Shown here: one piece after another, positions 14,949 through 46,249 of the stretch
Layout: the number at the start of each line of letters is the position of its first letter
Position numbering within the stretch: position 1 is the stretch's first letter
Virus record (IMG/VR): IMGVR_UViG_3300047361_000395
Coordinates: 1 to 52,292 of that record
Length of the DNA: 52,292 nt
DNA from: a virus
Taxonomy: Duplodnaviria; Caudoviricetes
Direction: 5' to 3' (one strand)
Program-made: the position numbers and the translations under genes
The notes under the pieces: model-generated
What the model was told of the DNA's origin: nothing
Seen by the model: the letters and a program-made list of their open reading frames with translations, nothing else
Database searches by the model: none

Positions 14949-17900
14949 CTATATATTTATAGTTATAGTTTTAAGTATTAATGGATCCGTGCCTGATCCT
15001 GGATAAAATATAGATGTTGCAGCATTGCTAACCGTAGGAGGTGTGTCGCTGGTTATTACTACAATCCCATACTTTGGAACAAAATCTTTAAGGTAGTACA
15101 CCAACTTAATTTCAGCATCAATCGTTCCAGGTTTGTTAGCAAGCGAAGAATAGAAAACCCCTCCAATAAGGTCTAGTGAGCCAAATCTAGATCCTGAGCT
15201 TCCTTCACCATTTTGTATAATCGTTGTGTTATCCCATTGACTATTGTCAGTTGACCCGCCGTAGGGATAATTTGAGTATCCTGTAGTTACTGGGAAAGCA
15301 GAGCTATTATTAGGAAAAGGCGTACCAGTTCTTTGTAACTGCCATTCATCATCCCCCAAAGAGTCAATTTTAATAAACTGTGCCTTAAATGGCGTGTATA
15401 TCTTTTGACCGTTACTATCATAGGTAAAACTTCCCGTGTGAATTGTCGCACCAGGAATGTCTGGATGAGAAAGGGTGTTGGTGTAACTTGTGCTTCCCAT
15501 AGAGCTTACTGTAACGTTTCCATTTGAGTCAACAGACACTCCAGACCCTATGTCTCCAGCCGCAGCGCTTAGGGTAATTTGAGCTCCTGAAGGATACGTT
15601 TCTCCAAAATTTTTGTTTTTTATATTTATTGTTAATGGCGGCACTGTATTGTAATAGGAATGAAGTTTTATCGTTTCTTGATTAAATCCTGTCTGCTTAA
15701 ACATAGGCCCAACATTTTGGTTTATCGTATGTTGTGTCAAACCGAGCATAGTAAAAGCATCCCCTCCGGCTACCGGAGAATTTGTATCTGAAAATGTAAT
15801 ACTGCTATTTGTATCTGTATAGGCGGTAACCTGAGGGAATGTTAGTGATTGATTTTCTACCCCACTAATAATTCCATTTAAACCTTGAGTTGAGCTCAAT
15901 CCTGATGTCACCTCAACCCAAGGTTTAGCGGTGTATGAAAATGCGCTTGTACATGGTTCAGATATAATAAAAGCTAAACTTGTGTATAAATGTTTGTTAT
16001 TGCTAGCATCGCTCCTAATAGCATGATTAACTAAAGATAGTTTTGTTATCTCCCTAAATCCTATAGGAGTAACTATAGCAACTGGGCTTGTTAAGCTATT
16101 AGGTCTTCCGTTAGAGTCTACGTCATTTGTGAATGCATACATTATTGCGTCACCAGGAATATCATTTATGCTCTGCCCTGTTAATGATTTTGCTGTATTA
16201 TCGGCGTTCCTCATTATTCCAATAGTATAACCAAGGGTTACTGCGGCATCTTTTGTAATATATCTGTCAGAAAGAGTTAATCCATATGTGGATCCTGTTT
16301 GTGCGTCACTCCACTGTACTGCATCGGTTAAATTTAGACTAGCCACTGTGACTGTGTTATCGTATGGAACGTAAGTAGTATCACTTACTCTTAATGCGCT
16401 GGAAGCAAGCGGAATATTTGCTAAATTTGAATCTGTTGTGCTACTGTTTCCATTGTAACCATCTGCTTGCATCTTATCAGCATAATGGTTTGGGAAGAAA
16501 AATAATCTTTCTGGAGGGCTACAACTAGAACTTCTTCCGCTACCAGAAGTATCACTGACTCCTGGTGTAGATGCATCTAAAGGAGCAGAATCAACAGAAT
16601 CAACTATATAGTCACTGTCTGTATCAGCAAGCAATGGGTTTGTTCCAGCTGTTGCTTCTTGAGCGTCAGTTAGACCATCGTTATCATCATCCGTGTCTGC
16701 ATTATTACCAACACCGTCTCCATCGGTATCTACGCTTTCAGAGGCATCTAGCGGGAAAGCATCATTCACATCTAAGACTCCATCGTTATCATCATCTGTA
16801 TCTAAATAATCTAGAGTTCCATCCCCGTCAGTGTCAGGGGGAGTGCTAGTGCTATCTAAAGGATCCGTTCCTGCAGCTGTTTCATCTGCATCTGAAACCC
16901 CATCATTATCATCATCAGTATCGGCGTTATCTCCAGTGCCGTCAGAATCCGTATCTGTTGTTTCTGTAGAGTCAAGAGGGAAAGCGTCACTGGTGTCCGG
17001 AGTCCCATCATTATCATCATCTGTATCTATAGCGTTTGGTATGCCATCAGAATCTGTATCTGTTGGAGTATCTGTACTGTCTAAAGGATTTGTTCCTAGC
17101 TGCGTTTCATAAATATCACTTATGCCGTCTCCATCGTCATCTAAATCAGCATTGTCTCCGATACCATCAGAATCCGTATCTGTTGTTTCAGTTGCGTCTA
17201 AAGGAAAAGCGTCTGCGCTATCAAGTACCCCATCATTGTCATCATCTGTATCTGCATTGTCCCCAATACCATCACTATCGCTGTCTGTAGTTTCAGTTGC
17301 ATCTAGCGGGAACGCATCAGAAGAGTCTGGAGTGCCATCATTGTCATCATCTGTATCAGCATTGTCTCCTGTTCCGTCGCCATCTGTATCAGTTGTCTCT
17401 GACGCATCTAGTGGAAATGCATCTGACGTATCGGGTGTTCCATCATTATCATCGTCAGTGTCCGCATTGTCACCAGTTCCATCGCTATCTGTATCAACGC
17501 TTTCAGTTGCGTCTAGCGGGAAAGCATCGCTTGAATCAGCAACTCCATCTCCGTCATCATCCGTGTCTGCATTATTTCCTATGCCATCACTATCTGTATC
17601 TATGGTTTCAGTTGAATCTAAAGGAAAAGCGTCTTGTAAATCTAAAACACCGTCATTGTCATCATCTAAATCAGCGTTATTTCCTACCCCATCTCCATCT
17701 GTATCCGTTGTTTCGGTAGCATCTAACGGGAATGCGTCATTAACATCTAAAACACCGTCGTTATCGTCATCGGTATCAGCGTTATCACCAGTTCCATCAC
17801 TATCTGTATCAACAGTCTCTGTAGAGTCTAAAGGAAACGCATCAGCTGTATCTAAGACTCCATCGTTATCATCATCTGTATCAGCGTTGTCACCGGTCCC

Positions 17901-20900
17901 ATCTGAATCGGTGTCTGTCGTCTCCGTAGGATCTAATGGGAATGCATCGCTTGAGTCTAGTGTTCCGTCGTTATCATCGTCTGTGTCGACATCATCTATT
18001 GATCCATCTCCATCACTATCGACTTCATTTACGTCTGCTATTCCATCATTATCATCATCTGGGTCTGCATTGTCCCCAAGGCCGTCTGAATCAGAATCTA
18101 CTGTTTCTGTAGAATCGAGTGGGAATGCGTCAGAGGAATCAAGGACGCCATCTCCGTCGTCATCAGTATCTGCATTGTTCCCAATACCGTCTCCGTCTGT
18201 GTCTATACTTTCTGTAGAATCTAAAGGAAATGCGTCTGCTGTATCTAATACCCCGTCACCATCGTCATCAGTGTCCTGATTATTTCCTATGCCATCTCCG
18301 TCAGTGTCAACAGATTCATTAGGGTTTGTTGGTAAAGCATCACTTCCGTCAAGTACCCCATCATTATCGTCATCCGTGTCAGTTGAATTAGGCGTGCCAT
18401 CTCCGTCAGTATCAGTATCATTGTTATCATCAACACCATCGCCATCCATGTCGCCTTCATTAACATCTAAAATACCATCGCCGTCATCATCGGTATCAGC
18501 ATTGTCTCCTGTTCCGTCTGAGTCTGTGTCGGTTGTCTCAGTAGAGTCCAAAGGAAATGCATCTTGAGCGTCATCAACCCCGTCTCCATCATCGTCGGTG
18601 TCAGCGTTATCTCCAACACCATCCCCGTCCGTATCAACACTCTCTGTTGAATCTAGTGGGAATGCATCTGCGGTATCAAGCACGCCGTCGTTATCGTCGT
18701 CTGTATCTATAGAGTCAACAGTACCATCGCCATCTGTATCTGTACTATCATATAAAATTTCACACTCTACTTCGTCTTCTCTCCATTCTTCTTGCGTTCC
18801 ACGGAGTGATAATGAATAAGAACGGTCAGTTGGGTCATATCCTCCTATAACATCAGGAGTCACTTTTAAAGCATCTCCGAACCAATCAAGCATTCCATAG
18901 TCTGATATTTGTGTTATACCATCTTGAGATAGTCTGCAAACCACCCTTCTTCTTTCATCTACAAAGTAAATTCTTCCTCCCCATATTATCACAGCAAAAG
19001 GATTAGCTGTAACCCCATATTCTCCAAGATAAGGAATATCTTGCCCTAAAATATTTGTACTGGAAGCAACATTTCCACTTCCATCGGCATTAAATAAAAC
19101 ACTTTTATTAAACAACAGCTTAGAAACTCTGTTTTCCTGAAACACAACCAAATCTGATTCTCTTCCTACAATCTTGTTGATACTTCCATAGAAGTCATCC
19201 ATATCTTTGTAGTTTGCAGTAGATAAGTTAAACTCGTTTAATCCGTTGTATTTTGTTGTTTGGTCATAAACATTACTGTAGGTTAATGAAGTTGTTCTGT
19301 TGTTTTGTTTATAATCCTTTAAGTTTGATGATGGCCTATTTTCTGGCTCAAAAAACTTAGCATTAAAATCGTCTTTTATTTTATATGACTCAACACAATT
19401 TCCCCATGAAAAACAATTGAAAAACGGAAGCTCGAAAGTAGCTTGAGTTGAATCTGTTTGAGTTGTGCCTCCAGCGGGGGCCTCGTGATACCCTTGACTA
19501 TTTATATTGTATGTTGCCGGAAGCTCATAAAATATCTCAGAGTTTATTGTTTCTGGTTTTGTTTCTAAATTTATTATGTCAGTTGTCTGTCTTGTAAATA
19601 AAACAAATGTGTTGTCTATTTTAGCTCTTTTGCTTATTGATGTATTTTGTTGAAACTTAGATCTTATAACCATTAAAAGATCACTAGTCAAAGAGTTATC
19701 TATAAGAGACTGCCTAGATCCATATGTTCCTCTTAAAAAAAATATTCTGTTTTCAGGAATATCAGGATTTAATATTGCTTTGGCTCCGCTTTCATGATAC
19801 CATTCTTCTAGGTTTTTGAATGTTTGATTAACTACAAACTCATGTGTTACAAACTGGTCCCCCCTGTTGTACTCGTCGTATGTAAAATTTATTATTGTTC
19901 CTAAAGGTATTTCTTCTTCTGTTTGGGGAAAACTTCTAAATTGAGAATAAGCTCTTTCACCTCTTACGCTTGCGTTAGTGTAAAGGGCGTTTATTGTTGA
20001 GGGTCTAGCGTTAAACATCCACCTGTCGCCTATTGTGTGCCCTGTTGCAGCAGCAAAATCAATTGTCAATCCAGATCCAGTAAGAGCTATTGGGGTTCCT
20101 GGTGTCATGGTTAAGTTTGTTGCGCTTAAAGTATTTGTGCCATCATTATCAAGAGTATCGACTGACCATTGGAATGTATCAACTATCAAAGAACCATCTC
20201 CGTTAACATCTACATTAATTCCATCAATTTCAACCCTAATTCTGGCAAACTGCTCAGATATAGTGTATGTTCCGCCAAGAGTTACGTCGGTTACAGCTCC
20301 ATTTGTTCCATAATAAAAAGGACCTTCAACTACTGAGGAGTTAAATTGAATGCTTAAAGGGTTGTCTCTTTTATTACTAGAATCATCATAATCAGTATGT
20401 TCTGTTCTAACAAAATCATCTATAGAAAGACTATATCCGCTTGGCTTAAATTTAGCATAAAATCCTGGCTGCTGTGCAATTGGAGGATCTCCAGTTCCTG
20501 GATAAGTGTCATCTTCTAAAAAGTTAACACTTTGCTCTTTCATCTCTAAAACTTGAGTCTCCACAAGGCCTGTTTTAACGCCTCTAGAGTCAGCTTTTAC
20601 CACAAGGAATTCTCCTTCTTTTATTTTATTTTTATCATTTCCGTTTAACTGAACATAAACGTAACCTGTTTCTTGTTCCTCGTAAAATATCGCAGGAGAT
20701 ATGCTTTCGTAGTTTCCTTTACTTTGCTTTATATATATTCTATATTTTTTTGCAAAAGCAGGAGGCAGGTGATTTATTGTTACCTGCAATTTATTTTGTA
20801 GCTTTTGACTGCTTAACGGAATATTTGTGCTAGACTGAGGAGAGGTAATAACAGTTGTAGACCTCCCATAATCGTCTAAATAAATAATTCCAGCCTCATA

Positions 20901-22022
20901 GTCTTTATTACTTTTCACGCTTGAAACAGGAGGTGTAGTTATTGTTGCTGTTGTGGCTTGTAGATTAATGTCTGGTTTTATTTTTTTCCCGTTAGAATCA
21001 ATAAGGTTAAAATTTTCTACATAATTTCCATAAACAATCCTGTTGCCTATAAGTTGTTGAGTTTTTGCCTTTAAGGGCACATTATCATATACCCTAAACA
21101 ACTCTTTTTCTGCAAGGGCTTTGTATATTTTTGAGTTTTTAAACAAAAAGTTTTGCGTAGCATTATTTGCATAAGATTCATCTTCCTTGTTAATAGATTC
21201 CACAACGTACACAACACTAGAGTTACTTTCTTTAAAAACAATCTCTACGTCTGTAACGTTTTTTGACCCTGTATCAAACTGTATGCTTACTGATCCGTTT
21301 GCATTTACCATAGACTTATTTAGTCCGGTAGAAAAATCTAAAGAAAAAGATTTAGGAAAAAAAGCTACTTCCGAAAAAGGAGACAACGCACTATACTCTC
21401 CATGCTTATACTTATATCTATAGGAAAAATAAAGAAATCTTTCTTCAATAGTATTTTCTTCATTTGTTGCGCTTTGAAGAGTTAAGACTGGCGGGTACAA
21501 TGGTGGTTTTTGTATAACATCTATGTCATATTTATCAAAATCGTTTCCGTCTATAAGCTTGGCAGAATCAATTTCAACCCGCCTAGGAGGATTCAATCCA
21601 TCTGTAAAAAACAAAAATCTTTTATTATTGTCAATATCTATAAGAATATTTGACTCAATAAAATTAGTTTTTGTAAAATTTAAAACATTATTGTGCCCAG
21701 TTCTTGTATCTATTAAAACAAATGAAGACGCATTATTGTCAGAATCATATTCACAAACATAGCTTCCTAAGTCAGATCTTACAAACCAATATATCTTATT
21801 ATTAACATCGTCAGCTACAGATCCAATACAAACAGGATTATTTCCCATGCTCAAACTAGATAGCACGGCATTAGAGATTTCATTCTCTACTGATCCAACA
21901 TCTGAACCACTAGAGTTTGCAACCTTTACATTTAAAGCATCACGATACTCTCCTTTCTGAACAAGCCTTTCATCCAGGTCTTTGTTCATTTTTCCGGAGC
22001 TGAAGATATTTTTAAACTTCAT
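14949..22022 (-). CDS. tail nozzle/stabilisation protein N-terminal part fused to a TSP3-like repeat array and a C-terminal beta-rich domain
   Basis: N-terminal [42 protein letters not shown]-x2-GEYS-x-LSPFS, [30 protein letters not shown]-x-IS-x-YGM and GGYDP, then Asp-rich repeats. Confidence 0.8.
16570..18750 (-). repeat. thrombospondin type-3-like Ca-binding repeat array (~35-aa/105-bp unit)
   Basis: Consensus [35 protein letters not shown]; 14 exact DAFPLD copies plus variant units (GTNPLD, GTDPLD, DALPTN). Codons vary between copies. Confidence 0.9.
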
Positions 22023-27047: not shown

Positions 27048-29450
27048 CTAATAACCAGCACTTAACGAGTCTTGACCATCAAAATCTATCGGGTCTAAGT
27101 CTTGTTGTCTTTGCTGTATAAGTTTAGACTGTTGAGACGCTTGTTTTGCTGTTCTTTTGTCTTTTCTGTCTTCTTTGTACTTTTCTTTAGTTAGTTGTGT
27201 TTCAACTTGCATTCCTTGAATATTTGCATCCAAAGACTTTTGTTCTTGAATCAACCTAAGCTTCAAGGAAAACTCTTTATCCATTTCCAACATTTTTAAA
27301 TCTGACTCCATTTTCATAAGCTCCATATCGGCTTGTTTTTTAGCCATTTCCCTTTGCTGCTTTGCCTGTTCAGCAGCCATTGCAGAGTCTTGATTTGCTT
27401 TTGCCTGTTGTTGAATATTGTCTTGTTGTCTTTTTTGGTCTTCCTTTTCTTTTGATTTTTTTCTAACCTTAAGAAGTTGAGAAGCTATTTTTACGTTTCT
27501 AACATTTCTAATATCAATAGCATCATCTATATCTATTTTTCCTTGAGATAAGGATGTATTTATGTGTTGCTCTAAAACAGCTCTTTCTTCTTCGTCTGGG
27601 TGTAATTCTATGTAAACGCCAAAATCATGAAGATGAAGCTCTTTTATTTCTTTTAGTATTTCCATACTATATCTGCCGATTGATTTAGCAAAATCCTCTT
27701 TAAATTCAGAAAACTCTAATACATCAGACATTCTATAAGTAACACCTTCAGCAACTCTTCTTGTTATGTTTATTCCTGATTTTAAAATGTGCCTTGTAGC
27801 TGTATTAGAATTTAATGCTGCTATTTTTTGTACACCAACTAAAGAATTTGAGTCTGGAGTAGATCCGTCTCTTGCCTCATTTAGGCCAGTTGCAGATCTA
27901 ATCATCCCTAAATTGTAATTATACATATTTATTAAAGAAGATATTTTTGCGTTTGCACCAGAAGAAGTTAACTCTTGAATAGGCATCTTACCGTGGTTAA
28001 ACTCTCCTTCCTCAGTAAATGACCTTCCTATTACAGATCCGGTTTGAAAATATAAATTCAAAGCCTCTTGTGGTGTATACATTGCTCCATTGCCTAGATT
28101 AATTGAACTTAATCCATCAATATCCATATATACGCCATCAGGAATCATTTTTGCCGTGACCTGTTGGAGTTTAAGATGTATCAGTTGTATCTGATCCGCA
28201 AATGGAATCATTCTTTTTACCAGAGAGTCCACTTGGCCCCTGTACATTTTTGGAGCACTTACAATATAAGGTGCTACCGCTTTGCTCATTGAGGACTTTG
28301 GGCGAACCATGTTCTTCATTAAGTCCCATTTTAGAATGTAATTTGTTCCTAGAACAAGTACACCTTCGTACCATACGTCAATTCTTTTAGAAAGTTTTTC
28401 AAATCTAGCTTTCTCTGTTTTTGGTGGGTTAAATTGATCGTCTTTTTTAAGTACCTTGTCTCCTCCTTGAGATGTTTTCTTCTTTTTATATACGATATTC
28501 TTGTCCGTTTTATAACAGAAATACAACAACGTTGCAGTGTTGTGGTCAAAATTGTCTGTCTTGTATCCGCCTCGTATTCCTTGGTAAGCATCCCATTTAG
28601 AAGACATCTTTGATATTTCCTTTATGTCTTCTTGACTTAAGGAAGGGTCTATTTTTTTTAATTCTGTTATATTTACGTTTTTGACTTCTCCAAAATAATA
28701 ACAATCTTCAAAATCTTGATCTTCAGTAGGGCTCCATATTAAGTTTGCTGGATCTACGTATTCGACTTTTATTCCATCATGAGTATTAAAAGAATGCTTT
28801 ACAGAAGATATCCCCAATGTAGTTTGATCTTCATCAATTTTGTTTCTTATTTGCTCATAATTATTCATTCTTAAGACATTTTCAATAGCCTTTTCTTGAG
28901 CAATTTCTATATCATCTTTGTAGTTTAGTTGCATTTGCAGCTCTAACTCATCAGGACTTTGTGGAAGCGTTGTTGGGTCTTGATCAAACATATCTTTTCC
29001 AGTAATCTGCTGCATTTCCATTAAGTCATTCTTATTCCTCATTTCAGCCTGTAGCTTCAACTTATACATGGCTTTTTTATTGGATGATATTGAATCAACA
29101 GCATCAACCATAACGTCATACAGTCTATTCTGCATTCCATTAACCACTATATCTACAAACTTTGGTATTACCGGAACTGGTGTCCAGTCTAAATTTAGAT
29201 ATGATATGTCTCCATTTATAGCAAGCTCATCCTTGTACTTTTGAACCGACTGCTCTCCCATAGCATAAGTTCTTAGCTTATGGTAAGTATCTCTGTTATT
29301 ATAAAATCTTGAAGTTCCGCTTTCTTTTCTAAACCACTCGGACTCTATTGCTCGAGCCACAACTAACCCATACTCCTTAGATCCTTTTTTTGAATCAGAA
29401 GCGAGTTGATCTGGAAAGCCAATAACATTCCTTGTTTGGACTCCGTTCAT
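27048..29450 (-). CDS. portal protein
   Basis: 800 aa; YLNLDWTPVPVIPKFVDIVVNGM, VEYVDPANL and TGLNEARDGS-x-PD; C-terminal coiled coil; follows terL. Confidence 0.85.
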   Translation of the reverse strand: MNGVQTRNVIGFPDQLASDSKKGSKEYGLVVARAIESEWFRKESGTSRFYNNRDTYHKLRTYAMGEQSVQKYKDELAINGDISYLNLDWTPVPVIPKFVDIVVNGMQNRLYDVMVDAVDSISSNKKAMYKLKLQAEMRNKNDLMEMQQITGKDMFDQDPTTLPQSPDELELQMQLNYKDDIEIAQEKAIENVLRMNNYEQIRNKIDEDQTTLGISSVKHSFNTHDGIKVEYVDPANLIWSPTEDQDFEDCYYFGEVKNVNITELKKIDPSLSQEDIKEISKMSSKWDAYQGIRGGYKTDNFDHNTATLLYFCYKTDKNIVYKKKKTSQGGDKVLKKDDQFNPPKTEKARFEKLSKRIDVWYEGVLVLGTNYILKWDLMKNMVRPKSSMSKAVAPYIVSAPKMYRGQVDSLVKRMIPFADQIQLIHLKLQQVTAKMIPDGVYMDIDGLSSINLGNGAMYTPQEALNLYFQTGSVIGRSFTEEGEFNHGKMPIQELTSSGANAKISSLINMYNYNLGMIRSATGLNEARDGSTPDSNSLVGVQKIAALNSNTATRHILKSGINITRRVAEGVTYRMSDVLEFSEFKEDFAKSIGRYSMEILKEIKELHLHDFGVYIELHPDEEERAVLEQHINTSLSQGKIDIDDAIDIRNVRNVKIASQLLKVRKKSKEKEDQKRQQDNIQQQAKANQDSAMAAEQAKQQREMAKKQADMELMKMESDLKMLEMDKEFSLKLRLIQEQKSLDANIQGMQVETQLTKEKYKEDRKDKRTAKQASQQSKLIQQRQQDLDPIDFDGQDSLSAGY

Positions 29451-29457
29451 ATATTTT

Positions 29458-31737
29458 TTATCTCAATATTGTACTTGTTATTCCACCATTATTGTACCTT
29501 GCAAAGGTAACATTTATTTCTTTAACATTTTTCTTCGGTTTGCTAACATATTTGTTATTTGCCATAAGGGCAAATCCAGAACTTACGGTAGCATCAAACT
29601 TTGTTCTGTTGTTTATATCATAGTTTGCCCAGTCTAAAAGCGTCCTTGTAAAATACATATTTCCAGAGCCCGAATCTAACAACCCAACATTTTGTTCAAT
29701 ATAAGACTCTATTGCTTCAGCATGAATTGATATTACTGCTGACGAAGAAGGAATTCCTCCAAGCTCTCTTTCTGCTTTAGATAAATCATTCTTGTGCTTA
29801 TCTGGTCTTGATAAACTAAACCCCCTGTATCCTCTATTTTTTAAATGATAAAGAAGTCTTGGTTTGTTATTTTCAGCAAGGACCGGCATCCCATAAAAAA
29901 CACAAGCCATCAAAACATCTTCGTAGAATATTTCAGCAGTCTGAGGTCTACTTATATATTCTAAAAAAAACAAATTAGATGGACCTTCAAAGTTTATTTT
30001 GGTTATTCCATGAAGAGAACCATTAGACCCTCCGCCCCCTACAGTTCCAGATATATCATAACTATCACATCCAAAAGCCCCTATGTGTTCGTTACCTGGA
30101 TACTTTATTCCGTTTTTATTTATTATTCTATTCCTTAATTCAAGTGGAGGTATCCATGTAACATAAAATCTTCCTTTTGGATTTGGAGACCAAACAACTT
30201 CTGTGTCTTTTTTACCATTAGCCCAAGAAAAATTACCTCTTTGCAATACCCTCTGCGCTTCTAATCCGTCGTTATAATCTATCTGCTCATATATTTTGCT
30301 GAGATTATACAAAGTGTTCTTAGACTCATCCCTAAAGGCATGATTTTCTGTTCTTGGAAACTGCCTATAAAACTCATTTAAAGCGTCTGAATCATTTTTT
30401 AAAGACTCAACTTCATTATTCCAGTAATTAATTACGCCTATATCTATATCCATTCCATCAATTCCTTCTACGACGGATTCTGGTGTGTTAAAAACAGGGT
30501 GACCATGTTTATCTATAAAGCCCTCCATGTTCCATTCCATAGGAATAAATAAACTGTATATTCCACTCTTTGTTTGGCCATTAGAATTTCTTTCTAAAAC
30601 ATCAGAAGCTCTATAAAGTTTTTTAAAATTATCTCCACCCTTATCTAGTGAGTTTGATGTGGATCCCATCATACACTTTCCAATAACCTTTCTACCTAAT
30701 CGTAATGTAGTTTTAGTGACCCTCCAGTTGTTGAGGATATTATCGGGCCTTTCCCATTTACCAGATTCATCATGTACAAGGAGTCTGAGTTTTTCACCAT
30801 CGTAAGAGTTATCTCCTGTGTTTCTCCAGTCGATAGTAGTGTCAAGACCTGTAAGCTCCTCTGTATTTGATTGCTCAATAGATTTTCTTGTAAGTTTTGA
30901 AGCTGGCACTCTATAGGCAAGTTCAGTTTTTGGTCGATCCATTCCGTCCTGTATAGGCTTGAAGAAAAAAGGATAGTTTGTGGATATTGGAACGACTTTA
31001 TCTGTAAACATTTTTTTAGCATCTGAACCTGTTTTTGATAAAATTCCAAATCTTGCGTCGGAAGTAATTGTGGCTTGATTGACAGTTTCCGATGACGACA
31101 TAAAGCTAAATCCACTCCGTCTATTTTTGAGGTAGCACATTCCAAAACATCTGATGTCTGCCTTGCAAGCTTCCCAGAATATATAGAATAATCTGTTTGA
31201 CTCCCTAAACTCTGGGTGCCCAACATCAATCTTGGTCCACTGGAGATACATGTAGTGAGAGCCAGTAATATAAGTAGAGACACCATTATTCTTAAACCAA
31301 AATCCATTTTCTCTTCTTTCAAATTCCGCTTCAATATATGATATCCAAGATTGTTTGAAGTCAGAAGGGTATTCATTCCATTGAAATATACTTTTAATTT
31401 TTTTAAGTTCTTTTGGATATTCTGAAGGCTCCCAATACTGATCTTTTTTTTCATTGCTTTTATGGTATACAGATTTTGGCTGCAAAGGTAGTCCAATTTT
31501 TAAATTCTGTATTTCTACAACATCACCTAAAGTTCCATCTTTGGATATAATGATTATATCATAATCTTTATCATAACCATACTTCCAGGATTTTAATTTA
31601 TTTTTACTTTTTCGTACAGATTGTTTTATGTCATCCTGCACAATTCTATAAAGACTAAGACTTCCTGCCTCTAGTTTCTGCGAAGCTTTGGAATCCCTTA
31701 TCTTTTCCTGAACTTGTTTCAGATTCGTCCGTGCCAT
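29458..31737 (-). CDS. terL: terminase large subunit (start uncertain)
   Basis: Walker A LKNRRSGFS, Walker B LLVHDESGKW, MGSTSN, RuvC-like nuclease motifs FGCDSYD and LAENNK, and FDATVSSG. Confidence 0.9.
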   Translation of the reverse strand: MARTNLKQVQEKIRDSKASQKLEAGSLSLYRIVQDDIKQSVRKSKNKLKSWKYGYDKDYDIIIISKDGTLGDVVEIQNLKIGLPLQPKSVYHKSNEKKDQYWEPSEYPKELKKIKSIFQWNEYPSDFKQSWISYIEAEFERRENGFWFKNNGVSTYITGSHYMYLQWTKIDVGHPEFRESNRLFYIFWEACKADIRCFGMCYLKNRRSGFSFMSSSETVNQATITSDARFGILSKTGSDAKKMFTDKVVPISTNYPFFFKPIQDGMDRPKTELAYRVPASKLTRKSIEQSNTEELTGLDTTIDWRNTGDNSYDGEKLRLLVHDESGKWERPDNILNNWRVTKTTLRLGRKVIGKCMMGSTSNSLDKGGDNFKKLYRASDVLERNSNGQTKSGIYSLFIPMEWNMEGFIDKHGHPVFNTPESVVEGIDGMDIDIGVINYWNNEVESLKNDSDALNEFYRQFPRTENHAFRDESKNTLYNLSKIYEQIDYNDGLEAQRVLQRGNFSWANGKKDTEVVWSPNPKGRFYVTWIPPLELRNRIINKNGIKYPGNEHIGAFGCDSYDISGTVGGGGSNGSLHGITKINFEGPSNLFFLEYISRPQTAEIFYEDVLMACVFYGMPVLAENNKPRLLYHLKNRGYRGFSLSRPDKHKNDLSKAERELGGIPSSSAVISIHAEAIESYIEQNVGLLDSGSGNMYFTRTLLDWANYDINNRTKFDATVSSGFALMANNKYVSKPKKNVKEINVTFARYNNGGITSTILR
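29502..29509 (-). promoter_or_regulatory. possible -7 box (TACCTTTG) for the portal gene, inside the terL 3' end
   Basis: TAnnTTTG about 50 nt upstream of the portal ATG. Confidence 0.4.
30696..31307 (-). CDS. candidate overprinted lipoprotein in the +1 frame of terL (203 aa from ATG 31307; frame open from 31496)
   Basis: 266-codon open frame inside terL. ATG 31307 follows A-rich GAAAGAAGAGAAA; the N-terminus MDFGLRIMVSLLILLALTTC has a signal-peptide-II layout with Cys20. Confidence 0.45.
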   Translation of the reverse strand: MDFGLRIMVSLLILLALTTCISSGPRLMLGTQSLGSQTDYSIYSGKLARQTSDVLECATSKIDGVDLALCRHRKLSIKPQLLPTQDLEFYQKQVQMLKKCLQIKSFQYPQTILFSSSLYRTEWIDQKLNLPIECQLQNLQENLLSNQIQRSLQVLTLLSTGETQEITLTMVKNSDSLYMMNLVNGKGPIISSTTGGSLKLHYD

Positions 31738-31957
31738 TTAATTTTTCTCTTTCAATCTCTATCCTTTGAAGTATCTCAAAAGCATCAAATATTGCTAGTT
31801 TTTTTGTTGCGGCTGCATTCTTAAGCCTATCAGCAGCAAGATCATCATCTGGGTGTCCAGTAATAATTTCTTCTTCAGCAACCTTTATAAGTTCTTCAAC
31901 AGCTTTTTCTCCAGCACTAATTACCTTTTGTATTGTTTCTATAACCTTTACTTCCAT
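31655..31957 (-). CDS. terS: terminase small subunit (putative)
   Basis: 100-aa helical protein (AVEELIKVA...DRLKNAAATKKLAIFDAFEIL) directly upstream of and overlapping terL. Confidence 0.65.
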   Translation of the reverse strand: MEVKVIETIQKVISAGEKAVEELIKVAEEEIITGHPDDDLAADRLKNAAATKKLAIFDAFEILQRIEIEREKLNGTDESETSSGKDKGFQSFAETRGRKS

Positions 31958-32153
31958 TTTTAATTGTTTTGTGCCACAATATTTGGGCTAGCTTAATTTC
32001 ATTTGGATCTTCAATAGAAACACTATTAATTATTTTTTGATACGTTTTTACTCTCAATGCTTGTCTTTGCTTCTGTACTTGAAGTTGTGAAGTACATCCC
32101 ATCAATAGAATCACCCCAATACTCGCCAGTAGCGTTGTTTTTAATGTTTTCAT
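31917..32153 (-). CDS. small lipoprotein (o-spanin candidate)
   Basis: MKTLKTTLLASIGVILLMG-C: basic N-region, hydrophobic core, lipobox with Cys20. Confidence 0.55.
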   Translation of the reverse strand: MKTLKTTLLASIGVILLMGCTSQLQVQKQRQALRVKTYQKIINSVSIEDPNEIKLAQILWHKTIKNGSKGYRNNTKGN

Positions 32154-32274
32154 TCTGTTTGTTTGTTTGTTGAAGTAGTAATACTTCAGTTAGTTTGTCG
32201 ATACTTTTTCGTATCTCTTTTAATTCATTTCTTAAGCCATTTGACTTTACAGTTACTTCTGTTTTCTTACTCAT
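32026..32274 (-). CDS. hypothetical coiled-coil protein
   Basis: Overlaps the upstream stop; helical N-half (LRNELKEIRKSIDKLTEVL); 3' part overlaps the lipoprotein gene by 128 nt. Confidence 0.5.
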   Translation of the reverse strand: MSKKTEVTVKSNGLRNELKEIRKSIDKLTEVLLLQQTNKQNENIKNNATGEYWGDSIDGMYFTTSSTEAKTSIESKNVSKNN

Positions 32275-32518
32275 TTTTTACATTAGATTTTGACATTGCT
32301 TCAAGCAACCCTCTTTCGTATTCAACTTGTTTTTCTATATTTAATATTCTTTCTTCAAGTTTATTTATAAAAACAATTTTTTCGTCTAACCTGTCGTGGA
32401 CTAAAGATATTTCATCTTTTAATGCCGTAAACTCTGCAAATATTCCTCCTGCTGTAAATACAGCAACAACAAACGATATTACTATTGATAGGTTGTTCTT
32501 TAAAAATGCGTCCGGCAT
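32267..32518 (-). CDS. single-TM coiled-coil protein (i-spanin-like topology)
   Basis: N-terminal TM LSIVISFVVAVFTAGGIFA followed by heptad-rich coiled coil. Confidence 0.55.
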   Translation of the reverse strand: MPDAFLKNNLSIVISFVVAVFTAGGIFAEFTALKDEISLVHDRLDEKIVFINKLEERILNIEKQVEYERGLLEAMSKSNVKNE

Positions 32519-44400: not shown

Positions 44401-45490
44401 CTGCGTCTGTCAAAGCAGTAGCTGTGGATCCTGTAAAAAAAGCTGTATTTACATCTGAAAGCTCAATTACGTTGTGAGCAGACAAATCAGTTATATCTGA
44501 AGGTATGTTTAATATTTCATTAGCAGCACCTGTTGTAGCAGTAAAATCTGGTTTTACATTTACTTGAGCATTAGCAGCTATACCGTTCAGTTTATTTAAA
44601 AGAGCAGTAGTGAAGTCGTTTTCTGAAAGAGCTTTACCGGATACAACATCAACCTTTGCATTTAAAGCAACTTGAAGTCCCGCAATGCTGCCTATCCCTA
44701 AAGAAGATAAAGTAGCTGCATTTATTTGACAAAAATTAACAACCTCTCTAAGTGTATCCAAAGCAGGTTTATCTGCTGCATCAACGTCTAATAAATCAAA
44801 TAGATTGTCTGTAAGATCTTTAAGTATCTTTCCTTGATTTGCAGACAAAGCTTTATTTGCATCTGTAGAGGTAAGGTTATCTGTTATGTCTGAAGGCTGT
44901 AATGCTGTTCCTAAAGTAGTTCTTTCTGCGTCAGTGATTATTAGTCCAGACCCAGCATTAGTAACATCTTCTAAGTCTGTAACTAAAGGAAGTCCATAAA
45001 ATGAAAGGAAATAATAACTGTTTGGCTCAAAACTTCCGTTTGATTCTTTATGGGTTACAGTTAAAACTAAATACCTGGTGTTTGAATGATTCTGAACATT
45101 AGTAACTCTAAATACACCAAACTTGTCAAAGTCTCCTTGCTTTGAAACTTTTATTTTTTTGCCTAAAAATGAAGTTACATAGTTTTCTACATCAATACCA
45201 TTAACAACTTTCTTTGATACTATTATCTGAGTTGTTGCTGAAAATGCTTGCGTAGCCGCAACTCCACCAACAAGGTTTAATGCTCCCGCAGGATCTGCAG
45301 CAGCTGGCTCAAACGCTTGATATTTAAAAACTATACCATCAAATAAATCAACTCCACTTAACTGATTTATAACGTCCATCAGACTTTGAATAGTAAAATT
45401 CTTAGTTCCTGATGTTGATGAATCTGTCCCTAGCAGCTTGTCCTGAAAAGTTACATTACTATCTTGATCATATGTTTGTATTCTAGCCAT
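41462..45490 (-). CDS. large mosaic tail fibre / baseplate-wedge-like protein
   Basis: ALSANQGKILK; LVSGAPTALDTLNELAAALGDD; two cupredoxin-like repeats (Y-x-FD-x-SD-x2-N-x-NH); two TIQ(D/E)EGS...LNFVG repeats; three V(F/Y)I(D/N)GVYQ repeats; C-terminal LTLPASP-x2-G...RNGSNIMG. Confidence 0.75.
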   Translation of the reverse strand: MARIQTYDQDSNVTFQDKLLGTDSSTSGTKNFTIQSLMDVINQLSGVDLFDGIVFKYQAFEPAAADPAGALNLVGGVAATQAFSATTQIIVSKKVVNGIDVENYVTSFLGKKIKVSKQGDFDKFGVFRVTNVQNHSNTRYLVLTVTHKESNGSFEPNSYYFLSFYGLPLVTDLEDVTNAGSGLIITDAERTTLGTALQPSDITDNLTSTDANKALSANQGKILKDLTDNLFDLLDVDAADKPALDTLREVVNFCQINAATLSSLGIGSIAGLQVALNAKVDVVSGKALSENDFTTALLNKLNGIAANAQVNVKPDFTATTGAANEILNIPSDITDLSAHNVIELSDVNTAFFTGSTATALTDAGSGSIITNTERTKLGAIDVNPTNSTITDGTDSITVAPSSRTIEVAGTTNEVEVSPTGAQDLSTNRTFTVGLPNDVTIGNDLTVTGAATAASFVKSGGTSAQILLANGSVIDLTIESQGINSNDSDAKVPSNAAVKDAIDTAISNLVSGAPTALDTLNELAAALGDDAAFSTTITTALGNRLRFDSSQTLSSAEKTQILTNLGITSTIQEINFLDGVTSTLAYKSHTVTVGSKTGGGNAFYIDGGELPVLIVLPETKYRFDLSDATNANHDFQFSENIDGAGTGSYTANVTAVGTPGQSGSYIEITGSYQYPNLYYYSPNSTGMGNRVKTDASTYLEGLTSDKIEFDHDLIVDSKIATKHSNTVKTMVVTVVTKTAAHPAHGVAGASSLGYSIDGIESPELTFAVGNTYKFDQSDSSNTNHPLRFYTDEAKTAIFGSGVSYSTASAGQSGAYTQITPLETTPNVLYYQCSAHVKMGWKAVFNTRNLTNFLTDDLNEGSSNLYYTDARADARIAAASIDALSDVDTTTSAPSTGQALVWDGSKFEPGTVGSTLTIQDEGSDLSTSGTTLNFVGTGVTASGTGATKTITIPGAASGITIQEEGSAVGTAATTLNFVGSTVTAAGSGASKTITITGSSAGGGGTTVARDTLSGVSGTQSYNLSQSIADENNTYVFIDGVYQSKTTYSMSGTTLTFGYQPPVGTNNIEVIHYTSAPAVTDVGVLQVDTFDGANYSSNLTLSIAPENKQHTNVFINGVYQEKSTYTLSGNALTLTGYSATTGDTIEVESRKVITPSGLTYANMVSDTGTGDGSNQTFSTPNGAPQTKEFTLVYINGVYQSKSTYALNSGDIVFTTAPDVGDEVEIISINSLNTASVPAVTSVGSLSGDVVLNNLKQNVSVISGNTNAQAYHVYVFTANLTLTLPASPEAGQWIKISNRSGVATCVVARNGSNIMGAASDLTLDTASASFELIYSDATNGWVIIGQ

Positions 45491-45903
45491 TATTTGTGGT
45501 TTTTATTACCCATTACCTTCTCATAAGACCGCCCGCCAAAATATCCTGCAAAAACAACAAAAAGAAGCTCTTTCACAACTGATAAACCTTCTATCTGCAT
45601 ATACCATCCAACAACAAAAGAAACTGTAAGAAATATTAATGTTAACGGCCTTACATTAGAAGGAAGCCAACCGCTTCTAGCGTCTGCCACCCACCTTCGT
45701 GTTATGCCATCCATTTCAGCTCTTTCTAGCTCTAGTTTTTTTAAAGCAACCTGCTTGTCTTGTTCAGACATGTCGGAGCCTCCTATAATAGCTTGAATAA
45801 CACTTCCAACAGGAGTATCCTCGGCAATAGCGCCAACGACTGAAGGAATTTTTTGAAGTAAAAATTTTCCCACGGCAGTTTCTTTAAATGCTTTTTTTGC
45901 CAT
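45490..45903 (-). CDS. holin (3TM/GTA-holin-like)
   Basis: RW-x-AD...VRPLTL, two TM helices and YFGGRSYEK; adjacent to the endolysin. Confidence 0.75.
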   Translation of the reverse strand: MAKKAFKETAVGKFLLQKIPSVVGAIAEDTPVGSVIQAIIGGSDMSEQDKQVALKKLELERAEMDGITRRWVADARSGWLPSNVRPLTLIFLTVSFVVGWYMQIEGLSVVKELLFVVFAGYFGGRSYEKVMGNKNHK

Positions 45904-45904
45904 A

Positions 45905-46249
45905 TTAATATGTCCAAATTGTTTTTTCAGGCGCTCCTGGATATCCTATTCCCAAATGCATAAACCCTTTTTTTCTACTTATACCTATTCTAGTAAATCC
46001 AACCTGAATAGCGGCTTTTACAAGCCTAAATGTTTTTCCGCCACCAATACTTTCAATGTCAACAGCCGCTCCATAAGAATGTTCTCCAGGAGAATCTTTA
46101 GCTGCTTCAATGGGATGACTAGGGCTCCTATAGCTCGAAGTAATTTTTATCGGGCTACCATAGGCCTCTCTTAACTGATCTAACATAGTTAAGAGTTTTT
46201 CATCCATCATTTCATAGTCACTAAATTCTGATTCAGAAAAATATTTCAT
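45905..46249 (-). CDS. endolysin, peptidase M15A family
   Basis: LDQLRE-x-YG-x-PI-x-ITS-x-YR...H-x2-G-x-A-x-DI...GF-x-RIG...FMHL (Zn ligands H, D, H). Confidence 0.85.
   Translation of the reverse strand: MKYFSESEFSDYEMMDEKLLTMLDQLREAYGSPIKITSSYRSPSHPIEAAKDSPGEHSYGAAVDIESIGGGKTFRLVKAAIQVGFTRIGISRKKGFMHLGIGYPGAPEKTIWTY

Follow-up and report, generated by a model that had tools for sequence, protein, structure and literature searches.

A probable second protein-coding gene within the large terminase subunit gene of uncultured phages, overprinted in its +1 frame

Lambda Rz1, inside Rz, and T7 18.7, inside 18.5, are o-spanin genes embedded in the +1 frame of their host genes, and their products carry an N-terminal export signal. 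Rz1-type proteins, which are outer-membrane lipoproteins, are short and rich in Pro, and their genes lie inside that of the i-spanin partner; o-spanin genes are small lipoprotein genes that lie within, overlap or adjoin the i-spanin gene of the lysis region. The E protein of phiX174, 91 residues long, targets cell-wall synthesis, and its gene is the only lysis gene of the phage. The T4 holin T and antiholin RI, encoded by standalone genes, are late envelope proteins that set the timing of lysis, each with one N-terminal hydrophobic segment and a folded periplasmic domain (large in T). Gene E lies in the +1 frame of D, where, according to excerpts of the review by Pavesi, T-rich third positions of the host gene give a Leu-rich hydrophobic N-terminal helix ahead of a poorly constrained tail (PMC8227390). 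The same excerpts describe viral accessory proteins that arose de novo by overprinting as more narrowly distributed than their host genes, predicted to be unstructured and biased in composition (PMC8227390). Here we analyzed a long stop-free frame inside terL, the gene for the large terminase subunit, in the viral record IMGVR_UViG_3300047361_000395 (hereafter the window, which is the whole record of 52,292 bp with a G+C content of 35.5%).

This frame is probably a real gene for a protein, overprinted on the ATPase domain of terL in the +1 frame and kept by selection, and the phages that carry it are a large, uncultured group with kinship to Bacteroidota podophages. It would be of a known kind, a +1-overprinted phage gene for a hydrophobic-headed protein, and what would be new is the host gene terL, the unusual length and the tail without a predicted fold. 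Like phiX174 E, it lies, out of frame and on the same strand, wholly within an essential gene of morphogenesis; unlike E, it would encode 150–216 residues, its host gene is terL and the phage has its own holin and endolysin, and the likeness is one of gene architecture only. It shares with Rz1 and 18.7 the +1-frame position within a late phage gene and an N-terminal export signal (here a predicted one), but its product fails the lipobox test described below, its host is a terminase gene and a separate lipobox ORF (open reading frame) lies upstream of terL. As in T4 T and RI, a single N-terminal hydrophobic segment is followed by a further region, although here the tail has no confident predicted structure, the gene is embedded and no family was matched. 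The likeness to de novo overprinted viral proteins lies in a distribution narrower than that of the host gene, the absence of predicted structure, a skewed composition, a seemingly accessory status and repeated loss. Most documented overprinted genes come from small RNA or single-stranded DNA viruses, whereas this one resides in a double-stranded DNA phage of ~52 kb, where compression is not an obvious driver, and the overlap takes up ~200 codons in the gene of an enzyme that ranks among the most conserved in phages.

The terL gene (29458–31737, minus strand, 759 amino acids) matched the PHROG family phrog_6681, ‘terminase large subunit’ (E = 1.7e-169), had no match in Pfam, and represents the host frame, which is ancestral. 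Inside it, on the same strand, an ORF of 266 amino acids with a TTG start spans positions 30696–31496 (minus strand), and the difference between the two starts (31737 − 31496 = 241) places it in the +1 frame. The frame is free of stops over 267 sense codons (801 nucleotides, 30696–31499, minus strand, corresponding to nucleotides 238–1039 of terL), with the stop codon at 30696–30698, so that the long open +1 frame reported at 30696–31496 in an earlier note on this DNA was reproduced from stop to stop. Elsewhere the +1 frame of terL holds 43 stops, with a next longest open run of 41 codons, and the longest run in the +2 frame is 29 codons.

Chance was assessed with 20,000 permutations of synonymous codons within terL that left protein and codon usage unchanged. 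The longest +1 run in shuffled genes averaged 70 codons with a maximum of 187, and none of the 20,000 attained 267, which is the outcome that the earlier note, in proposing such a permutation, would have predicted for a gene. The shuffles placed 12.46 ± 2.29 stops in the region that is open in the window, and again 0 of 20,000 were stop-free. In a genome-wide control covering 22 genes in five alternative frames each (110 tests, 300 shuffles per test), the +1 frame of terL was the sole frame that beat every shuffle. The longest same-strand runs in the 21 other genes tested were 21–90 codons; the limit of about 80 amino acids previously given for such out-of-frame ORFs was close, with the actual longest reaching 90 codons. 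The ORF is far longer than the sequence of the host protein, with its codon usage, would permit.

To place the frame among its relatives, we scanned IMG/VR, which yielded at least 600 related terL stretches, and kept the best 80 (66–86% protein identity), giving 81 sequences with the window. The full-length +1 frame was open in eight of the 80 loci (L001–L006, L008 and L009; runs of 264–267 codons in the ungapped sequences), many other loci had runs of 146–231 codons in the same place, and the remaining loci had 9–22 stops in the region. Alignment columns 160–313 (30852–31307 in the window, minus strand, ~150 codons) form the core common to all ORF-bearing lineages, and sequences with 0–1 stops in this core were classed as ORF-bearing and those with 4–12 as ORF-less. 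Core stops were absent from 28 sequences, numbered one in 5 and two or three in 3, and ranged from 4 to 12 in 45. The 33 ORF-bearing sequences (of 81) thus had 0–1 core stops where 4.5–8.5 were expected. Over the whole set the per-sequence shuffle expectation was 4.5–9.9 stops; the 45 ORF-less sequences agreed with it and the ORF-bearing ones never did, so the null model is sound and the distribution is bimodal. The C-terminal end of the ORF varies, with stops near columns 313, 335 or 365.

The two clades that carry the ORF share a third-position identity of 0.51, compared with 0.46 at saturation from codon usage alone, and since third positions are this near saturation, shared ancestry is unable to explain the open frame. 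The ORF has stayed open across diverged homologues despite turnover at their synonymous sites, and the conservation of the +1 frame that the first description had singled out as a check is borne out in these 33 of 81 sequences. On the terL tree the ORF occurs in two of the three major clades, all 34 sequences of the other being ORF-less, and its status switches at least seven times by parsimony, with opposite-status sisters supported at 0.96–1.0. It was absent from all six GenBank relatives checked (33–64% identity; Manatee Spring podovirus MW202828, Flavobacterium elemoD, Cellulophaga phi46:3 and phi38:1, Maribacter Panino and Tenacibaculum Gundel_1), where the longest +1 runs were 39–87 codons, and no cultured phage carrying it was found. 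Five ORF-less viral records (two complete, three partial) contained no standalone copy of the ORF, the sole match in them being the decayed frame inside terL, with 7–12 stops. The distribution of the ORF is narrower than that of its host gene, as befits the younger, novel frame.

Because global synonymous suppression was weak (see below), it was replaced by tests of ORF status by region. In the overlap region, where terL is ~80% identical, a two-by-two comparison across the two clades gave a third-position identity in the core of 0.514 for pairs of the same status and 0.439–0.476 for mixed pairs; outside the region the value was ~0.50 for every pair class. ORF-less sequences had the same synonymous change inside and outside the region. 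Codon composition outside the region was equal in all groups, and inside it differed by status: third-position A in the hydrophobic segment was 0.01–0.06 in ORF-bearing sequences of both clades versus 0.25–0.28 in ORF-less ones, and in the tail third-position T was 0.25–0.27 versus 0.38–0.39 and third-position C 0.22–0.23 versus 0.10–0.15. The window alone has the same character, with third-position A at 0.00 in the hydrophobic segment versus 0.35 outside and third-position C at 0.20 in the tail versus 0.10 outside the region, which bears out the remark on C/G-ending terL codons that had been made at the start. The third position of terL is the second position of the +1 codon, so that these shifts produce a hydrophobic segment of ~15 residues and a hydrophilic remainder, the same logic by which the excerpted account in the Pavesi review explains phiX174 E in D (PMC8227390).

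The encoded property changed accordingly. The mean Kyte-Doolittle hydropathy of the segment was 1.95 in the 33 ORF-bearing sequences versus 0.77 in the 45 ORF-less ones, which have the same terL consensus (p = 9e-9 in a group test that ignores phylogeny), and the hydrophobic fraction of the tail was 0.26–0.29 versus 0.39–0.41. A total of 33 of 218 columns differed by status at p < 1e-4, again ignoring phylogeny. Phylogenetically independent sister contrasts were concordant in six of six cases for the hydropathy of the segment and for the hydrophobicity, T and C of the tail, which removes shared ancestry as the cause. Selection on the encoded protein is visible at positions that are synonymous in the host frame.

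A number of results weigh against a gene kept by selection. Global suppression of synonymous change is weak or absent: the test gave 0.598 inside versus 0.544 outside the region in the window's clade, and in the 11 clade-II sequences without a stop in columns 160–330 the direction was reversed (0.572 versus 0.620); the synonymous constraint on terL that had been put forward as a check is therefore weak in the first group and runs the other way in the second. The amino-acid identity in the +1 frame is mostly imposed by terL (0.427, versus 0.357–0.383 for mixed-status pairs). The +1 product had no match in Pfam, PHROGs or PADLOC, and NCBIfam returned nothing but noise, a single hit (E = 0.035) between the N-terminal segment of a relative and a beta-lactamase model at its signal-peptide end. 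Start codons are not conserved among the ORF-bearing sequences: in the interval from the last stop to the hydrophobic segment, 25 have an ATG and the other 8 only TTG or GTG, and the fraction with at least one ATG in the start zone is barely above that of ORF-less sequences (0.79 versus 0.67). The contigs from RNA libraries described below document presence, not transcription or translation.

Points of this sort would be expected if the frame were not a gene and had been opened by chance, shared ancestry or codon-usage selection on terL: the suppression of synonymous change is weak overall, and the putative product has neither a predicted fold nor a known family. We nevertheless regard this as highly improbable. 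It is only among ORF-bearing sequences that the shuffle null breaks down, the 45 ORF-less ones being well described by it, the frame is open in two deep clades despite near-saturated third positions, and the sister contrasts exclude shared ancestry in six of six cases. Moreover, the codon shifts run in opposite directions along the ORF (in the helix T is up and A is gone, in the tail T is down and C is up), a pattern that selection on terL translation does not predict.

The likeliest coding part of the overprinted gene (30699–31307, minus strand) would start from an ATG with A-rich surroundings, the first one upstream of the hydrophobic segment, and give a product of 203 amino acids. As previously stated, translation from this ATG at 31307 gives MDFGLRIMVSLLILLALTTC..., with a cysteine at residue 20 (31250–31248) and the same product length. 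The hydrophobic segment and the small polar stretch that follows it (31236–31289, minus strand; IMVSLLILLAL, then TTCISSG) resemble a signal peptide or signal anchor. The polar tail (30699–31235, minus strand) overlaps the terL ATPase region between a putative Walker A (YLKNRRSG) and a putative Walker B (LLVHDE), names that come from reading the terL sequence by eye rather than from a tool. Product length across relatives is 150–216 amino acids, including a tail of 130–185 residues that is mildly to strongly basic.

AlphaFold2, run with alignments of 33 and 93 sequences, predicted a single N-terminal helix (residues 2–22 and 3–23, respectively) with a predicted local distance difference test (pLDDT) score of 77–86. 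The tail scored below 50 over residues 25–203 and 32–203, that is, no confident structure over ~180 residues. Among ORF-bearing sequences, columns 165–167 are in part K or R, columns 169–177 form a Leu-rich core of ~10–12 residues, and columns 178–183 read T-C-T-C-S-G in most relatives (T-T-C-I-S-S-G in the window). Column 180 is Thr in 32 of 33 ORF-bearing sequences versus Ile in 34 of 46 ORF-less ones, and at the head columns ORF-less lineages have stops, Gln, Glu and Ile while terL reads alike. The predicted helix and the hydropathy contrast support the N-terminal hydrophobic targeting segment of the earlier note. The layout of the head fits a Sec signal peptide or a short signal anchor, with cleavage or membrane topology as the corresponding predictions.

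Another way to read the head is that the hydrophobic helix itself is the active part, a small lysis effector or regulator in the manner of phiX174 E, a class III holin or an antiholin, with the tail as an appendage whose sequence does not matter. Selection acts on how hydrophobic the helix is and on how polar and open the tail is, and not on particular residues of the tail, as this would require, and the arrangement matches that of E in the +1 frame of D, where the excerpted review again derives a Leu-rich transmembrane domain from T-rich third positions of the host gene (PMC8227390). Expression would also be late, since the ORF lies inside terL. We consider this reading unlikely, however, given that the genome already has a holin and an endolysin, that a core of ~10–12 residues is short for a stable transmembrane helix, that no similarity to lysis families was found in PHROGs or NCBIfam, and that a filler tail would not need 130–185 open codons.

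The cysteine after the core had led to the proposal of a lipoprotein processed by signal peptidase II, and a positively charged N-terminus, a Leu-rich core and a following Cys are indeed what a protein cleaved before a lipidated Cys20, with an o-spanin-like or receptor-blocking role, would show. The Cys20 codon (TGT, 31248–31250, minus strand) is, however, imposed by Met-Tyr in terL, where ATG TAY reads as TGT one base later, and it is thus no evidence for a lipobox. The conservation of this Cys had been suggested as a check; it was kept in 33 of 33 ORF-bearing sequences but also in 41 of 46 ORF-less ones (terL has Met there in 76 of 81), hence it is uninformative. A lipobox has Gly, Ala or Ser directly before the Cys. 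Only Ile or Thr is possible at this position when terL has Tyr there, and the ORF-bearing sequences had Thr (23), Ile (8) or Leu (2) and never Gly, Ala or Ser; the 96 database relatives were evenly divided between Thr (48) and Ile (48). The nearest clusters in the ESM Atlas were auto-named ‘Lipoprotein’ with scores of 0.78 and 0.75, which lie within the range of shuffled proteins and were treated as no evidence.

The genome does encode a canonical lipobox elsewhere, in a separate ORF of 78 amino acids upstream of terL with the motif LLMGC (31917–32153, minus strand). This ORF and the distant holin-endolysin pair make an o-spanin role for the terL-internal product unlikely: its host gene is terL, no i-spanin gene contains or adjoins it, it lies outside any lysis cassette with the holin and endolysin ~14 kb away, and its length is 150–216 amino acids. 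Taken together, a lipoprotein is an unlikely identity for the product. The proposal of the earlier note as a whole therefore stands in part, in that the overprinted gene itself is upheld by permutation, conservation and codon shifts, and the lipoprotein detail is not.

The candidate start zone (31284–31334, minus strand) of the overprinted gene contains TTG at 31334–31332, TTG at 31322–31320, ATG at 31307–31305 and ATG at 31286–31284. The ATG at 31307, whose conservation had been put forward for testing, was found in only 5 of 9 sequences of the window's own clade, but all 33 ORF-bearing sequences have an ATG, GTG or TTG available between the last stop and the hydrophobic segment. Six relatives have a +1 stop at columns 151–153, which places the N-terminus within ~15 codons upstream of the segment. 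Among 96 database relatives bearing the motif, the starts chosen by gene callers made the Cys residue 32 in 54 proteins, residue 27–28 in 22 and residue 20 in 3. Predicted RNA structure in the start zone is weaker in ORF-bearing sequences (−6.4 versus −10.1 kcal/mol per 75 nucleotides; p = 5e-5, ignoring phylogeny), with five of six sister contrasts in agreement and no difference in four control windows. Initiation independent of a Shine-Dalgarno sequence is usual in Bacteroidota, and the weak structure fits internal initiation of this type on the late terL mRNA.

The variable start codon could alternatively mean that the ORF has no start of its own and that ribosomal frameshifting or transcriptional slippage fuses the terL N-terminus to the hydrophobic segment and tail. 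The terL gene of the window does have runs of eight and seven A (31444–31451 and 31398–31404, minus strand) upstream of the likely start, which are possible slippage sites, and seven database proteins (P0002, P0049, P0056, P0190, P0037, P0076 and P0110) are chimeras of the terL frame and the +1 frame, in either order. The junctions of these chimeras are at many positions, with no single slip site, and probably reflect indel errors or frame-correcting gene callers rather than biology. This scatter, together with the +1 stops that occur downstream of the A-run position in most clade-II sequences, led us to set frameshifting aside as very unlikely. In addition, the stop at columns 151–153 in six relatives leaves at most 15 codons for a shift site, every ORF-bearing sequence has a usable start before the segment, and contigs from RNA libraries had no indels at the A runs, though contigs hide rare variants.

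Those libraries comprise four oligo-dT RNA-seq runs from one marine study, which contained 0.87–1.00 of the words sampled from positions 29458–31957. Contigs from three of the runs were identical to the window, one contig spanning the whole of this stretch; one run may be the window's source sample, and DNA carry-over is possible. Another run, of a library type that is not stated, carries a variant strain.

A profile of the +1 proteins recovered 247 database proteins (E ≤ 1e-3) from 2,598 candidates; their usual length is 182–216 amino acids, and none had a Pfam domain or a name beyond ‘hypothetical protein’. The profile also picked out 152 representatives at 50% identity, of which 84 reached E ≤ 1e-30, and the profile searches returned this family alone and no named protein. 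Annotation pipelines have sometimes called the ORF, yet its recognition as an overprinted gene appears to be absent. The portions of the literature consulted contained no report of an out-of-frame gene inside a phage terminase, and the supplements of annotation studies might list the family.

Considering these patterns, we suggest that the gene is carried on the late terL mRNA and may be translated from an internal ribosome start in an A-rich, weakly structured stretch, the start codon shifting between lineages and ATG 31307 being the best candidate in the window. The product would have a short, positively charged N-terminus, a Leu-rich core of ~10–12 residues and a small polar stretch, by which the polar tail of 130–185 residues, with no predicted fold, could be exported to the periplasm or anchored in the inner membrane. 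Such a protein might serve a late-infection envelope role in lysis timing, superinfection exclusion or another interaction with the host or competitors. The gene would be accessory, repeatedly lost and quick to decay once lost. We lean, if slightly, towards the fuller account in which this is a protein family born de novo in the terL ATPase domain, translated, exported to the envelope, long kept in hundreds of uncultured marine lineages and repeatedly discarded elsewhere.

If this is true, it would be the first overlapping gene described in a terminase, and a double-stranded DNA phage would, by recoding the synonymous sites of terL, have gained an accessory protein of the envelope that serves lysis timing, exclusion or counter-defence. 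No marker gene of tailed phages is used more widely than terL, which is taken to encode a single protein; a second gene would have been hidden by standard annotation, as would a widespread family of 247 database clusters, none informatively named. Synonymous sites of terL would then be non-neutral in these lineages, which matters for phylogenies and for work on the nonsynonymous-to-synonymous substitution ratio (dN/dS). Overprinting could yield envelope-targeted proteins in mid-sized double-stranded DNA phages as well, and the many ORF-bearing and ORF-less sister lineages would make an unusually good natural system for de novo gene birth, maintenance and loss and for the cost to the enzyme.

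Elsewhere in the window, the canonical lysis pair consists of a holin gene (45490–45903, minus strand; phrog_3427, E = 3.4e-12) and an endolysin gene (45905–46249, minus strand; phrog_894, E = 4.7e-22), both assigned with PHROGs. The phrog_894 protein is short (114 amino acids) and may be an endolysin or a peptidase. Immediately upstream of terL is a spanin-like group of small ORFs (31917–32518, minus strand), comprising an 83-amino-acid protein with an N-terminal hydrophobic segment and a coiled-coil-looking remainder (32267–32518, minus strand), an 82-amino-acid protein (32026–32274, minus strand) and the LLMGC lipobox ORF. No family in PHROGs or NCBIfam was matched by these small ORFs. The lipobox ORF overlaps the 82-amino-acid ORF by 128 nucleotides in another frame and the next gene by 41 nucleotides; it was absent from L004, L005, L006 and four scanned loci from other clades, and it was retained together with its overlap in three of the seven clade-I loci scanned (L001, L002 and L008).

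An antisense ORF of 385 amino acids (17122–18279, plus strand) inside a gene for 2,357 amino acids (14949–22022, minus strand) is striking in length but attributable to chance (shuffle p = 0.79). The portal gene (27048–29450) lies directly downstream of terL, and its own +1 frame has a 90-codon open run with the second-lowest p in the genome-wide control (0.007), a marginal value that is unremarkable because it is expected among 110 tests. A GroES-like gene is located ~0.8 kb upstream of terL with several small ORFs between them. This resembles the gene order of Cellulophaga phage phi46:3, in which a single small gene separates the GroES-like gene from terL and the portal gene comes next.

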